In this document: in pieces, positions 59,349 to 64,000 of the stretch
Position numbering within the stretch: the first letter of the stretch is position 1
Layout of the letters: each line of letters begins with the position of its first letter
NCBI GenBank assembly: GCA_945888435.1
Contig: CAMCZW010000007.1
Span: 12,700 to 76,699, forward strand
From: a bacterium UBP8_UBA817
Lineage (GTDB): Bacteria; Margulisbacteria; Marinamargulisbacteria; SXXA01; SICP01
Length of the DNA stretch: 64,000 nucleotides
Direction of reading: 5' to 3'
Notes under the pieces: generated by a model
Seen by the model: the letters and a program-made list of their open reading frames with translations, nothing else
Told to the model about the DNA's origin: nothing
Databases searched by the model: none
Translations under genes and position numbers: made by a program

Positions 59349-60613
59349 AATTATCAACGCTAAAATTAATCACTTATGCAAGCACCATAGACCAAGTTAA
59401 ATCATCACTTGAAGCTGGCGCTAATCATCTCATTTTAGAAGACTCAAAATTATCACTAAGACCCTTCCACGATGACTTCCAAACCTCAGATTTCACAAAG
59501 ATCACCCTACTCGCTAACCACGCAAGATCGCTATCCCCAGGCTGCGAACTCTCCTTTAACCTGGACATCCTCCCTCACAATCATCACCTCCCCCTCATTC
59601 ACCAACTCGCCCAGGAATTAGATAAAGCATTCATCACCACTGTTCGCGTTCAGGACCCCGGATTAGCCGAATGGTTTAAAGAGCATGCCCCCCACATCAC
59701 GCTCATTTTAAATTGCGAAACCGGCAACCAAAACACCGAAAGTATTCGCTATTATCAAGACCATTTCAAAGCCCAAGTCTTCGTCAACGACATCCCCAAT
59801 AAAGACATGCAAAAAATCATCACCGAACTTGCAAGCTCCGCTCAATTCGAGCTCCAGGTTCAAGGCCCCATCCTCATCCAAAATTCTCCCCGGCCCTTCC
59901 TTAGTGGACTTACCAATCCACATACGGATTCAACTACCGTTGTTCGCAGTCAGGACCACGAGTATCCAGGTAGATATTTCACGTTCTACCAAAATCCCCA
60001 TGGACATCTTATGTATGCCTATTTTGACAAAAGCCTTCTCAAAAATATTCCGGATTTAGTCGCTCTCAATTTAAGTGGCTGGATTATCGACGGCCGTGGC
60101 TACCCAGACACCTATACTTCAACCTGCCTAAAACTCTATCGCGCACTCACCAATCGCTACATCCAAAATCCAGATACGTATGAAATCACATCCGATGAAA
60201 TTAAAAAGTTAGACGAAGTCGCAACCCTCCCTCAAAAACCAGGCTTTTTCAAAATCAACCAAACTGATCAAGATCGGATCAAAAAATCCAAAGCGGCTCA
60301 TTCTGAAACCAAAGTCGGCATCGTAGTGGACTCCATCAAAGGAGAATGGATTTCGATCCAGGTTACCCACCCATTTTCTCCACAAGACACCCTCGCCATT
60401 ATGACTCCGGAAGGGAAACGATATCCATTATCTATTGAAGAAATGTATTCCATATGGAACACCCCTCTCTCGATAACAGACACTCTTTCTCCTCAAAAAA
60501 ATGCCCTAATCAAGTTGAAGTGGCAAAAAGGGGGTCAGGTAAAATCGGCTCTCATAAAATATTCTGAAATTATTGAGACTCAATCGCCGATAACTGCGGG
60601 GAGCAAAAAATGA
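59345..60613 (+). CDS. U32-like paralog lacking the cysteine cluster (degenerate partner, UbiV-position)
   Basis: N-terminus LKLITYASTIDQVKSSLEAGANHLILED parallels the U32 N-terminal barrel. No Cys motif. Overlaps the upstream gene by 4 nt (ATGA). Confidence 0.4.
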   Translation: MKLSTLKLITYASTIDQVKSSLEAGANHLILEDSKLSLRPFHDDFQTSDFTKITLLANHARSLSPGCELSFNLDILPHNHHLPLIHQLAQELDKAFITTVRVQDPGLAEWFKEHAPHITLILNCETGNQNTESIRYYQDHFKAQVFVNDIPNKDMQKIITELASSAQFELQVQGPILIQNSPRPFLSGLTNPHTDSTTVVRSQDHEYPGRYFTFYQNPHGHLMYAYFDKSLLKNIPDLVALNLSGWIIDGRGYPDTYTSTCLKLYRALTNRYIQNPDTYEITSDEIKKLDEVATLPQKPGFFKINQTDQDRIKKSKAAHSETKVGIVVDSIKGEWISIQVTHPFSPQDTLAIMTPEGKRYPLSIEEMYSIWNTPLSITDTLSPQKNALIKLKWQKGGQVKSALIKYSEIIETQSPITAGSKK

Positions 60614-61179
60614 AAACAACATCCAAATCACTATTTATCTTCATCGGATTAGTTTTATTTGGCCAGAGCATCCAGGCTCTTACAGCCGTCTCTCCCATTG
60701 CGTACAATCGCAAATCGTTAATCGCCCCCCCCAACTCTCAAGAATCAAGCATTGGCGAGACCTCAAACCTATTACTCTTAAATATGCTATACGATATTAA
60801 AGTTGATGGCGGACAAGGCGCAGGCCAACTTTCTAGTATCGACCCTCAATTAACGACTCAAGAAACTCAACAAAGCAAACTCGCAAGCACTCCCTTGTTT
60901 TACCCAACCCCTTTTCATTTAAGAGAAGGAAGTCAGTTAGGATACAAACTCACTGGAAACTACGATATCGAACTAAGAATCTATAGCATGCATGGCTACG
61001 AACTTTACCAAGTAAGTTACCCAGCCGGTATCCCTGGAAAAACCACCTCTACGTCTTACAACACCATTGCAATCGGAACCAACGAATTAGGATCAACACT
61101 ACCCTCCGGTATTTATTTCTTTGTCCTCATGAGCGAAGGCAATGTCATCGGAAAAGGCAAATTTGCATTAAAATCATGA
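60610..61179 (+). CDS. secreted protein (signal peptide) with C-terminal beta-sandwich sorting/Ig-like motif (FlgD-Ig / T9SS-CTD-like)
   Basis: Signal peptide MKTTSKSLFIFIGLVLFGQSIQA|L. C-terminus YDIELRIYSMHGYELYQV...LPSGIYFFVLMSEGNVIGKGKFALKS. Confidence 0.45.
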   Translation: MKTTSKSLFIFIGLVLFGQSIQALTAVSPIAYNRKSLIAPPNSQESSIGETSNLLLLNMLYDIKVDGGQGAGQLSSIDPQLTTQETQQSKLASTPLFYPTPFHLREGSQLGYKLTGNYDIELRIYSMHGYELYQVSYPAGIPGKTTSTSYNTIAIGTNELGSTLPSGIYFFVLMSEGNVIGKGKFALKS

Positions 61180-62087
61180 AAAAATTAATCGGCTATTTTA
61201 TTGGTGCACTTCTGTTAGTAACCACAGCACCTGCGGTTGCAAACGAGTTTCAATTAGCCACCGACATTGGGGCCAATGCACGACAAATCGCCATGGGAAC
61301 CATCGACGGATTTAGCAAAGATTCAACCGCAATTTTTGAAAATCCGGCAGGTCTTTATCACATCAAATCAAAATCAGCCTCGTTTTTTACGGCTACTTAT
61401 CTCAACGAAGTCGACTACAACAATATGTCCTTCGCCAAAAAAACCCGCTTTGGGACATTCGGCTTAGGCTTAATGAAAGTCAGTATTTCAGACAACCCAG
61501 TGACTGGTGTCGATAATGCTGGAGAACATGTACTCGTCGATAGTTTCACATTTAACAACTGGGTTCTCAAAACCAGCTACGAGAAATCCATCCGCCCCAA
61601 TATTCACTGGGGAGTTTCATTTAATACATATGGTCAAACTTTAGATGACACTAGTGGATACGGACATAACTTTGATACCGGCGTCATTATCATCGAAGGC
61701 AAAAACACCATCTCACTTGCAGTCAAAAATTTATCCATCAACCAAAACATCACATTTAGCGATGGCTCAAAAGAACAGTTAACCACTCAGTACGTTGCCG
61801 GCATCAAACATGATTTAAATACAGAATGGTCTCTCTACGGACAATACAAATTTAAAGAAGAAAACAGTCTCTTTTCGGCGGCAGTAAGCTATACTCCTTA
61901 CTTCGCTCCTTATTGTGAATTATTGGCAGGGTACAAACAAGTCTCTATTGGGAACATAGAGAAAGACACCACAACACTTGGGTTTTCACTCGACTTAAAT
62001 ACATTTAAAGTGGCATATTGTTATGAAAAGAGTGAACATATCAGTCATAACAGTACAAATTATTTTTCCGTAGCAATCGATTTCTAA
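61176..62087 (+). CDS. outer-membrane beta-barrel protein (signal peptide, C-terminal Phe)
   Basis: Signal peptide MKKLIGYFIGALLLVTTAPAVA|NEF, alternating amphipathic strands, and terminal ...YFSVAIDF. Confidence 0.5.
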   Translation: MKKLIGYFIGALLLVTTAPAVANEFQLATDIGANARQIAMGTIDGFSKDSTAIFENPAGLYHIKSKSASFFTATYLNEVDYNNMSFAKKTRFGTFGLGLMKVSISDNPVTGVDNAGEHVLVDSFTFNNWVLKTSYEKSIRPNIHWGVSFNTYGQTLDDTSGYGHNFDTGVIIIEGKNTISLAVKNLSINQNITFSDGSKEQLTTQYVAGIKHDLNTEWSLYGQYKFKEENSLFSAAVSYTPYFAPYCELLAGYKQVSIGNIEKDTTTLGFSLDLNTFKVAYCYEKSEHISHNSTNYFSVAIDF

Positions 62088-63461: not shown

Positions 63462-63489
63462 TTAATGGTCTAAAGTCGATAACAAAACA

Positions 63490-64000
63490 ATGATGAAAAA
63501 ATATTTACTAATAATACTAATTTTAACCTTACTTGCCGCCAACTTAGCGGCAGCATCCTTTATTGAATTTGAAACCACTTTAAGCCATTCTAAAAATGGG
63601 CTTCTTCGTGGAGAGAAGTCTGTCGTATTTAGCCTCTATAAAGGCACAGAAACTTCACCCGCAGTTTGGTCCGAAACTCAAACTGTCACATTTATCGACG
63701 GCAAATTATCCGTCCAACTCGGTAACGCAGCTGAAAATCAACTCCTCCCCTCCTACCTCGAGTCAGACTCAGTATGGATCGGAATCCAAGTCGACAACGA
63801 AGAGGTCAAACTTCCACTATCTTATGTCCCCTTCGCCATCAAAGCCAAAAGCGCAGACATCGCCAACAGCATCGACTGGACCAATGTCCAAAATAAACCC
63901 AGCATAACCTCTCCACTCCAAGTCAGAAACAATACCATCACACTCATCGATGGAACCGAAGCCAACCAAGTCCTCAAATGGACAGGAAGCACATGGGAAG
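63490..64000 (+). CDS. partial ORF (3' end cut by window): paralog of the collagen-like/S74 fibre protein
   Basis: MMKKYLLIILILTLLAANLAAASFIEFETTLSHSKNGLLRGEKSVVFSLYKGTETSPAVWSETQTVTFIDGKLSVQLGNA... is about 60% identical to the N-terminus of the upstream gene. The frame is open to the window end. Confidence 0.6.
   Translation, partial: MMKKYLLIILILTLLAANLAAASFIEFETTLSHSKNGLLRGEKSVVFSLYKGTETSPAVWSETQTVTFIDGKLSVQLGNAAENQLLPSYLESDSVWIGIQVDNEEVKLPLSYVPFAIKAKSADIANSIDWTNVQNKPSITSPLQVRNNTITLIDGTEANQVLKWTGSTWE

Follow-up and report, generated by a model that had tools for sequence, protein, structure and literature searches.

A putative surface-fibre locus in an uncultivated marinamargulisbacterium combines S74-terminated collagen-like fibres with a sorting-domain protein and a PorV-like barrel

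Introduction

What would hold a collagen-like fibre with a phage-type C-terminal domain at the surface of a bacterium, and is such a fibre a bacterial product or part of a phage? This question is raised by four genes, here named g1 to g4, at the end of a 64,000-nucleotide (nt) stretch of the metagenome contig CAMCZW010000007.1, which is referred to below as the window. A sequence-only reading of the window had proposed that these genes encode secreted surface proteins, i.e. a protein ending in a sorting-type domain, an outer-membrane β-barrel and two paralogous fibres with a self-cleaving S74 chaperone domain, and the present analysis supports the notion that secreted surface proteins are encoded at this locus. 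The overall interpretation favoured here, which is considered reasonably probable, is that g3 and g4 form Sec-exported, homotrimeric surface fibres of the MAT type, with g1 and g2 acting as an outer-membrane docking platform; the docking role of g1 and g2, taken by itself, is put forward tentatively.

MAT fibres were defined in Bdellovibrio by the presence of a signal peptide, a conserved β-rich N-terminal domain (N-domain) of ~130 aa, a trimeric fibre and a tip that consists of an S74 domain (SDxxxK) or another domain (Caulton et al. 2024, PMC10769870). Self-cleavage of the S74 domain was demonstrated experimentally in that study, which left the cell-surface partner of the N-domain open, and relatives with collagen-like or S74-like tips are named there for Omnitrophica as well as for members of the PVC and FCB groups (PMC10769870). 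A capping-loop motif, V-G-(G/N)-x-x-x-P-x-x-x-L, has been published for the β-helix that precedes the tip of MAT fibres.

Results

Family and domain architecture of the fibres

Public loci that were fetched and compared with the window are labelled with L-numbers in this study. One of these, L001, exhibits 0 mismatches to the window over 11,898 nt, reaches 4.6 kb further and contains the full g4 (716 aa; L001 11388-13538). Four consecutive, tightly packed open reading frames (ORFs) on the forward strand were confirmed at the window end (Table 1), and, as had been proposed, all four products possess N-termini that are consistent with Sec signal peptides. As judged by heuristics only (n-region, Kyte-Doolittle core and AxA-like site), one or two K/R residues within the first six residues precede a 12-residue hydrophobic core (mean Kyte-Doolittle value of 2.6-3.3) and a putative AxA-like cleavage site (g1, IQA↓L; g2, AVA↓N; g3, LVA↓N; g4, AAA↓S).

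The description of g3 and g4 as collagen-like fibres with S74-type C-terminal domains was borne out by Pfam searches. The g4 protein matches both Peptidase_S74 (PF13884; 69.3 bits, residues 613-671) and Collagen (PF01391; 92.1 bits versus a cut-off of 27.2), and contains 56 GXY triplets that are split into three runs. For g3, the Peptidase_S74 model was also matched above its cut-off (34.8 bits versus 22; residues 343-399), whereas the Collagen match of 18.4 bits was below the cut-off of 27.2; a collagen run is indeed present in g3, although it comprises eight uninterrupted triplets (residues 165-188) rather than the seven counted previously. The paralogous nature of the two fibres was likewise upheld by identities of 54-69% over three aligned blocks, with the GDFYLDT-containing module and GGxxN region of g3 (residues 189-342) being ~69% identical to g4. 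These GGxxN repeats align among fibre homologues and display a weak local similarity to the head of UspA1 (E=7e-4), while the S74 region of g4 matches 6f45 (E=1e-8), a chaperone of solved structure from a phage long tail fibre, and 7dc3, the MyRF domain. Judged from sequence, the pairing of a GXY collagen stalk with an S74 domain implies a trimeric assembly.

Both fibres share an N-domain of ~100 aa directly after the signal peptide, which can be aligned with the N-terminal regions of proteins from many phyla that end in an S74 domain. When GTDB species genomes were scanned with a degenerate pattern, at least 211 relatives were identified, among others in Verrucomicrobiota, Planctomycetota, Anaerolineae, Gammaproteobacteria and Acidobacteriota. 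When a profile of this domain was compared with 1.84 billion representative sequences, 66,358 clusters were matched at E<=1e-3 and 32,470 at E<=1e-10, and among the best 150 matches listed the domain was mostly located at residues ~20-140. AlphaFold2 predicted an all-β sandwich (pLDDT 74), for which Foldseek searches of the PDB and of viral models returned generic β-sandwiches only (TM <=0.55). The g3 and g4 proteins are with high confidence assigned to a widespread bacterial family of fibres, named 'tail fiber domain-containing protein' by NCBI, and by their matching architecture probably to its MAT type. With an N-domain that is present in more than 66,000 protein clusters, this kind of fibre is known and very common, and g3 and g4 are ordinary representatives of it.

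A sorting-domain protein paired with a PorV-like barrel

The suggestion that g1 ends in a domain resembling the C-terminal sorting domain (CTD) of type IX secretion (T9SS), or FlgD-Ig, was sustained by a match to TIGR04183 at the threshold of that model: with a cut-off of 23, the whole protein scored 20.6 bits (E=3e-4), and 23.5 bits were reached when the C-terminal 95 aa were scored by themselves. In Pfam, the g1 C-terminus did not match Por_Secre_tail (PF18962), and the CHU_C model was reached at E=0.06. The g1 CTD could be aligned with the CTDs of small proteins encoded at L006, L115, L121 and L158 through the motifs YPxNP(F/Y), xIRIY/F, SG(I/V)Y and GKFxxI, and the g1 C-terminus is described here, at the level of sequence, as a marginal T9SS type-A sorting domain. 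No homology is claimed for the N-terminal regions of these small proteins, as loosely similar, short Tyr-containing motifs did not yield a convincing alignment.

The view of g2 as an outer-membrane β-barrel protein with a C-terminal Phe agrees with its predicted barrel, its PorV/PorQ-like sequence and its C-terminus (...AIDF). Over its full length, g2 matches the NCBIfam PorV/PorQ model (NF033709) at 62 bits (E=7e-17), which is below the cut-off of 90, and the PorQ model at 50 bits; its homologues in L006 and L110 exceed the PorV/PorQ cut-off with 178 and 158 bits, respectively. An NPAGL motif is invariant in the g2 alignment. The AlphaFold2 model of g2 (pLDDT 75) is composed mostly of β-strand, with 16 strand elements listed, and Foldseek placed FadL/TodX at the top by E-value (E=3e-10), with the best TM-scores being obtained for PorV within the type IX translocon (8gl6_F, 0.68; 6h3i_F, 0.62). 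By its predicted fold, g2 is a FadL/PorV-type outer-membrane barrel, and it is assigned to the PorV/PorQ family. Among the window ORFs scanned, no T9SS core family (SprA/Sov, PorK/L/M/N) was matched, with ~68.6 kb of the genome being covered.

To gauge the generality of this pair, 80 metagenome loci with g2 relatives were fetched. When TIGR04183 was used, a T9SS-type CTD was found at the end of the ORF just upstream of the PorV-like gene in 47 of 76 loci, and of the C-termini in this set the PorZ model was matched by 44 and the PorU model by 47; when a home-made CTD profile was applied, the count was 61 of 78 loci. Because an upstream CTD is this frequent by either profile, a CTD protein followed by a PorV/PorQ-like barrel represents a common two-gene unit. 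At L110 (1027-7598), a PorV/PorQ-family barrel of ~300-330 aa is encoded directly downstream of a 1861-aa secreted β-propeller protein of the Kelch type with a PorZ-like CTD (49 bits), and on a JGI contig of P0049 a barrel of the same family and size range is located directly downstream of a 1233-aa secreted β-propeller protein of the PQQ type. Pairing of a cargo protein with a barrel seems to be general in uncultivated bacteria.

Recurrence of the trio in independent lineages

The functional connection of barrel and fibres that had been suggested for this locus is backed by conserved gene neighbourhoods in other lineages: a small CTD protein, a PorV-like barrel and a MAT-type fibre form a trio that is encountered again, in varying order, in four or more independent lineages. 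When 80 genome loci were searched with g1 and g2 by tblastn, only a close relative was retrieved, and L006 was revealed by profile search alone. L006 (JASEGY010000168.1) encodes a 311-aa CTD protein (TIGR04183, 41 bits; FlgD_ig, 52 bits), a 303-aa PorV/PorQ barrel (178 bits) and a MAT-type fibre, in which many exact NVGIGTTSPxEKL capping loops are accompanied by an S74 site of canonical sequence (SDWRLK). At L121, two fibres (one of which possesses the N-domain) are followed by a 192-aa CTD protein, the gene start of which overlaps the fibre stop, and then by a PorV-like barrel that carries TPR and OmpA domains as fusions. L158 encodes a CTD protein of ~190 aa, followed by a barrel and a 555-aa N-domain fibre without S74. 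L115 contains a repetitive protein that is cut by the contig end, followed by a 194-aa CTD protein and a PorV-OmpA fusion; the repetitive protein, the N-terminus of which is missing, showed no BLAST similarity to other fibres, leaving this locus ambiguous. The C-terminal fusions of PorV-like barrels to a peptidoglycan-binding OmpA domain (L121 6046-7749 and L115 2039-3694, with OmpA scores of 78 and 90 bits, respectively, and with TPR or CarboxypepD_reg as an additional domain) fit the idea of a static anchor.

With the window clade counted as one lineage, L115 left undecided and L177 classed as large, a gene with the MAT N-domain lies beside the pair in four of the five independent lineages with a small CTD protein, compared with none of the 46 loci in which the CTD protein is >=350 aa (hand-calculated Fisher test, probability roughly 2e-5). 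L177 had initially been taken as a case with a small CTD protein, yet its ORF proved to be the tail of a >2000-aa protein broken by a run of N and was reclassified as large. L143 was also rejected as a linked trio, as its PorV-like and N-domain genes are 6 kb apart with sugar-metabolism genes between them, and are probably unlinked.

These counts bear on an alternative explanation, considered somewhat unlikely, in which g1 and g2 constitute an unrelated, self-contained anchoring unit of the PorZ/PorQ type beside fibres that are held otherwise. In its favour, most CTD-barrel loci carry large enzymatic or β-propeller cargo and no fibre, most S74 fibres are without such a neighbour, and no use of such a pair is reported for Bdellovibrio, the source of the MAT definition. 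Set against this, the trio recurs with its genes rearranged in four or more independent lineages, and does so only where the CTD protein is small and nearly passengerless; in addition, the gene junctions in the window are overlapping or very short, and at L121 the fibre stop overlaps the CTD gene start.

A natural deletion in the S74 domain of g3

The sequence-only reading had assigned an intact SDxRxK...GFIAQD module to g3, which is contradicted by a comparison of the two paralogs. BLASTP aligned residues 1-364 of g3 with residues 1-558 of g4, and residues 363-448 of g3 with residues 635-710 of g4, the identity of this C-terminal block being 64% (g3 365-448 versus g4 635-710). Alignment with g4 and 13 homologues delineated the residues that are absent from g3 (FVLTADS...EGRLGIGMIPNATHAL...GVWATLSDRRLKKSIKPIENPLDTLLKLNG), a segment that in g4 contains the capping-loop-like sequence RLGIGMIPNATHAL and the canonical SDRRLK site (S613-DRRL-K618). 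In g4, this segment is flanked at the nucleotide level by a TAATGG direct repeat (GATAATGG followed by ATTT..., and CTTAATGG followed by GGTA...). Since this repeat bounds the 234 nt that are missing, the in-frame loss in g3 fits what a microhomology-mediated deletion would leave.

The SDGRAK sequence of g3 (S343-K348), which had been mistaken for the cleavage site, aligns with SDGSAK of g4 (residues ~538-543) and is part of the FVWSDG motif upstream of S74, in which F340, V341, W342 and D344 represent invariant family columns. In g3, the Pfam S74 model stretches over this sequence (profile positions 1-58, with position 1 at SDGRAK). A family S74 profile that was built from 13 homologues, with g3 and g4 left out, was matched by g4 across positions 1-76 (41.9 bits) and by g3 across positions 28-75 only (14-19 bits). 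SDGRAK keeps the S-x4-K spacing and precedes the GVTYEW strand by 22 residues instead of 24. Judged by these alignments, it is a non-homologous look-alike, and the homologous Ser-Lys dyad (SDxxxK) of S74 is absent from g3 and present in g4 (S613 and K618). The S74 module of g3 is thus not intact, because its catalytic segment is deleted, and only g4 possesses the canonical site. Residues 365-448 of g3 retain the conserved S74 core and helical part (..hGhhAQ-[DE]h..hhP..V..), and, as the g3 match is limited to the later positions of the family profile, g3 is predicted to keep the helical, trimer-nucleating part of the domain.

The loss of the capping loop and of the canonical catalytic segment, together with a collagen stalk that is down to eight triplets and the finding that g3, unlike g4, has no match to solved S74 structures or in 50,697 phage genomes, could indicate that g3 is a decaying, non-functional paralog that arose by duplication and deletion, with g4 as the sole working fibre. 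This scenario is regarded as improbable. The deletion is in-frame and the 452-aa ORF is intact in every cluster member and contig seen, including eight contigs from different samples, so that g3 is not obviously decaying; its N-domain, β-helix region and C-terminal helices are conserved, and a patch of g4 in another strain (see below) suggests that g3 acted as donor in a mosaic exchange. Moreover, folding of endosialidase-type proteins depends on the chaperone part and is not known to require cleavage.

Strain variation of g4

In contrast to its neighbours, g4 is hypervariable between strains. In the L191 assembly, g1 and g2 are identical to those of the window at the nucleotide level and g3 differs by 4 nt, whereas g4 (L191 11388-14807) encodes 1139 aa, compared with 716 aa in L001. 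The L191 protein contains about 160 GXY triplets (versus 56) in addition to three tandem 'collagen + GDFYLNS' modules, and its tip region is ~75% identical to that of the window strain, as estimated by eye. Within this protein, the patch GTIPGGFSN[VI]AAANSFAAGTTAEATQSNAFVWSDG differs from the g3 sequence by one V/I substitution only, and suggests mosaic exchange between the paralogs with g3 as the donor. Strain variation of g4 also explains why several assemblies break inside this gene.

Phage context and organism

The S74 domain had been described as typical of phage tail spikes, which understates how common this architecture is in bacteria, and the possibility of a prophage tail module beyond the window end had been raised. 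No such module was found in L001, where g4 is followed by a terminator-like hairpin (13555-13573) and then by two convergent, non-phage ORFs on the reverse strand (13909-16233, 774 aa; 16233-17813, 526 aa), for which no Pfam, NCBIfam or PHROG match was obtained. By eye, the products of these two ORFs are Ala/Ser/Gln-rich with one hydrophobic stretch each; their counterparts in L191 are 718 and 528 aa in length, and all contigs end shortly past them. The upstream flank of the locus encodes PriA, a TrpD-like protein and two U32-family proteins, and with a GC content of 0.40-0.46 the four genes resemble the window as a whole (0.44).

In PHROG searches, g1 and g2 were also without a match, and g3 and g4 matched tail-fibre PHROGs only from residue ~146 onward. 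In the phage genomes mentioned above, g4 matched 1026 records, only via residues ~508-714 (<=29% of the protein), and the relatives found in IMG/VR share mainly the S74 end with the fibres. Across the phage collections searched, phages share only the collagen-to-S74 part of the fibres and never the N-domain.

It is highly improbable that the locus represents what is left of a prophage or encodes the tail fibres of a phage-like particle, be it a prophage, a tailocin or an extracellular contractile injection system (eCIS), even though S74, collagen repeats and GDFYLDT are common in phage tail fibres, many tail-fibre PHROGs and, for the g4 S74 end, numerous phage records are matched, and eCIS tail fibres with S74 and collagen-like domains have been described in the literature: a Sec-type signal peptide is present in each of the two fibres, unlike in phage and eCIS fibres with their cytoplasmic assembly, the fibre N-domain and the neighbouring genes lack phage matches, the flanks consist of housekeeping (PriA, U32/TrhP-like) and non-phage ORFs of similar GC content, and synteny with the U32 genes is kept in a relative with 66% identity. 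The locus is not a prophage.

The suggestion of a Chlamydia-like organism was not supported by aspartyl-tRNA synthetase (AspRS), a single marker, of which the nearest named relatives belong to Candidatus Margulisbacteria, Margulisiibacteriota or Marinamargulisbacteria (58-63% identity); Chlamydiota were absent among the named AspRS matches in the best 120. On this marker, the organism is with moderate confidence placed in a Margulisbacteria-like lineage. Elsewhere in the window, a reverse-strand gene (43988-48727) encodes a 1579-aa protein with eukaryote-type UCH (PF00443, 52 bits) and protein-tyrosine phosphatase (PF00102, 154 bits) domains, and this effector-like composition hints at an interaction with eukaryotic cells. 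Another gene on the same strand (48816-50183) encodes a 455-aa protein with the lipase maturation factor domains LMF1 (102 bits) and LMF1_C (119 bits), a family that is mostly known from eukaryotes.

Locus layout and other features of the window

Coordinates of the genes and domains are listed in Table 1. The g3 locus was found on eight public metagenome contigs from several samples and the g1 protein in 11 contigs. Orthologues of g1 (~67% identity) occupy the same position in L085 and L111, and the order U32, g1, g2 and fibre is kept in a relative with ~66% protein identity.

Table 1. Positions of the genes and domains of the fibre locus in the window
Feature	Position	Strand	Description
g1	60610..61179	+	189 aa; putative signal peptide, ~70-aa linker and C-terminal sorting-type β-sandwich; overlap of the ATG with the stop codon of the U32-family gene upstream
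g1 C-terminal domain	60901..61164	+	Residues 98-185; marginal T9SS type-A CTD / FlgD-Ig-like
g2	61176..62087	+	303 aa; predicted PorV/PorQ (FadL-fold) family outer-membrane β-barrel; 4-nt overlap with g1
g3	62103..63461	+	452 aa; short fibre paralog; 15-nt gap after g2
g3 N-terminal β-sandwich (predicted)	62166..62477	+	Residues ~22-125; presumed cell-proximal; common to the fibre family
g3 collagen-like stalk	62595..62666	+	Residues 165-188; 8 uninterrupted GXY triplets
g3 module and Gly-rich repeats	62667..63128	+	Residues 189-342; 'GATWLSGN..NGDFYLDT..VYKK..W' module, then GGxxN repeats (β-helix-like)
g3 SDGRAK	63129..63146	+	S343-K348; look-alike of the S74 SDxxxK dyad within the FVWSDG motif
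g3 deletion junction	63192..63197	+	Between G364 and V365; 78 aa (234 nt) absent relative to g4
g3 retained C-terminal S74 part and coiled-coil tail	63195..63446	+	Residues 365-448; VTYEW..GFIAQDIEKVLPQWV..IDALIIESIKTLE..
g4, 5' part	63490..64000	+	170 codons, runs off the window; 28-nt gap after g3

The two U32-family genes (58050-59348 and 59345-60613, both on the forward strand) are located directly upstream of g1, and their best matches are TrhP (tRNA U34 hydroxylase) and UbiU rather than collagenases; the stop of the second overlaps the g1 start (ATGA), the corresponding gap in L085 being ~30 nt. A tie between these 'collagenase-family' genes and the collagen-like fibres was rejected, as the matches are enzymes of the TrhP/UbiU type.

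On the reverse strand, the window further encodes a Rpn-family recombination-promoting nuclease/putative transposase (2275-3180; TIGR01784, 171 bits), a pyrophosphate-dependent phosphofructokinase with menaquinone pathway genes (8745-13318; MenD and a MenF-like isochorismate synthase), and three ORFs of 1096, 544 and 584 aa (4240-7530, 23541-25175 and 25175-26929, respectively) with no or marginal Pfam, NCBIfam or PHROG matches. GC skew is negative in nearly all 2-kb bins (about -0.03 to -0.33; +0.03 in bin 46001-48000), and AT skew is positive in every 2-kb bin, regardless of gene strand. Scans of the 64-kb window for tRNAs and Rfam families returned nothing.

Discussion

The domain architecture, the deletion in g3, the lack of a phage context, the recurrence of the trio and the strain variation of g4 are shown by the sequences, whereas export, trimerisation, autocleavage, docking on g1 and g2 and the target of adhesion are inferred. 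In the mechanism proposed here, the fibres would be exported by Sec, after which the C-terminal S74 domain would bring three chains into register and nucleate folding of the β-helix and the collagen part towards the N-terminus. The S74 domain of g4 would then cut itself off at Ser613 (dyad S613/K618) and expose the distal tip, while g3 would trimerise via its retained helical part and stay uncleaved or, less likely, cut at the surrogate S343/K348. The N-domains of the fibres would dock at the outer membrane on a complex of g1 and g2, and the variable distal end would bind a target cell, which may be a host, prey or partner cell. That g1 and g2 represent a dedicated docking, and possibly export, module for MAT-type fibres that was derived from parts of type IX secretion is suggested with reserve. 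As a variant of this proposal, the ~100-aa N-domain of the fibre might itself, like a CTD, attach to the PorV-like barrel.

The closest parallel to g3 and g4 is provided by MAT fibres such as Bd3182 of Bdellovibrio bacteriovorus, to which they correspond in a putative signal peptide, an N-domain that is predicted to be β-rich, a fibre that is predicted to be long and trimeric, a β-helix-like region and a C-terminal S74 domain (SDxxxK in g4), as well as in mosaic variation of the tip between paralogs and strains. The N-domain of MAT fibres is ~130 aa, compared with the ~100 aa predicted here; neither has a good analogue in the PDB, and the two are likened by architecture. Compared with the published capping loop, the Pro in RLGIGMIPNATHAL of g4 is located one position earlier, and the motif is deleted in g3. 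Unlike MAT fibres, g3 and g4 possess a shaft that would form a collagen triple helix and not a long β-fibre, g3 is without the catalytic segment, and the operon of both also encodes a small CTD protein together with a PorV-like barrel, a pairing that is not reported for Bdellovibrio.

Phage spikes and fibres (endosialidase K1F and the long tail fibres of T5 and S16) share the C-terminal S74 domain, and collagen-like and GDFYLDT modules are found in phage fibres too, yet g3 and g4 differ from these in their Sec-type signal peptides, their bacterial N-domain and the lack of a phage context. Long GXY tracts in trimeric surface stalks are also known from Scl1/Scl2, Lcl and BclA, and the collagen region of g4 matches the Scl/Lcl models (100-117 bits) and BclA, with all scores far below the family cut-offs. 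In contrast to these proteins, g4 carries neither LPXTG nor another known anchor, and its trimerisation is predicted to rely on S74 instead of V or C1q-like domains. Trimeric autotransporter adhesins differ in turn, as the C-terminus of g3 and g4 is an S74 domain and not a 12-strand translocator and anchor.

With respect to g1 and g2, a CTD protein that is encoded beside a FadL-fold barrel is likewise found in the PorZ-PorQ, PorU-PorV and type-B CTD/PorP-like pairs, and in the T9SS PorZ is held at the cell surface on PorQ through its uncleaved CTD. In contrast to these pairs, g1 is almost without a passenger (~70 aa), g1 and g2 score at or below curated cut-offs, and the proposed client is a fibre without a CTD of its own, in a lineage that is not known for T9SS.

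Several points weigh against the interpretation of the locus as a docked MAT-type fibre system. Membership of the MAT type is based on matching architecture, the scores of g1 (20.6-23.5 bits versus 23) and g2 (62 versus 90) do not or barely reach the curated cut-offs, the structural statements stem from monomer predictions of medium confidence (pLDDT 74-75), and the signal peptides were called by heuristics. Outer-membrane crossing of g1 and the fibres would be unexplained if the organism is without a type IX translocon. The presumed docking module could also be a lineage-specific neighbour of the fibres: no PorV-like neighbour was observed at 78 of the 79 other S74-fibre genome loci (the 80th being L006), or at any of 24 viral loci, and a module of the g1-g2 type is for this reason specific to some lineages rather than a universal partner.

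The fibre family defined by this N-domain is very large and barely studied, and the single experimental study, in Bdellovibrio, left its anchoring open; the trio described here provides a concrete candidate for the fibre anchor. If the proposed docking holds true, g1 and g2 would represent the cell-surface element that is bound by the fibre N-domain, at least in several uncultivated lineages, and T9SS-style CTD-barrel pairs would work outside the canonical T9SS as general surface-anchoring units. What makes the locus worth following is the conserved association of its fibres with a PorV-like barrel and a small CTD protein, along with the natural deletion of the catalytic segment, as g3 offers a ready test of the separation of chaperone and protease functions in S74. 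In g4, the expansion and the diverged tip mark a likely specificity determinant in cell-cell contact.

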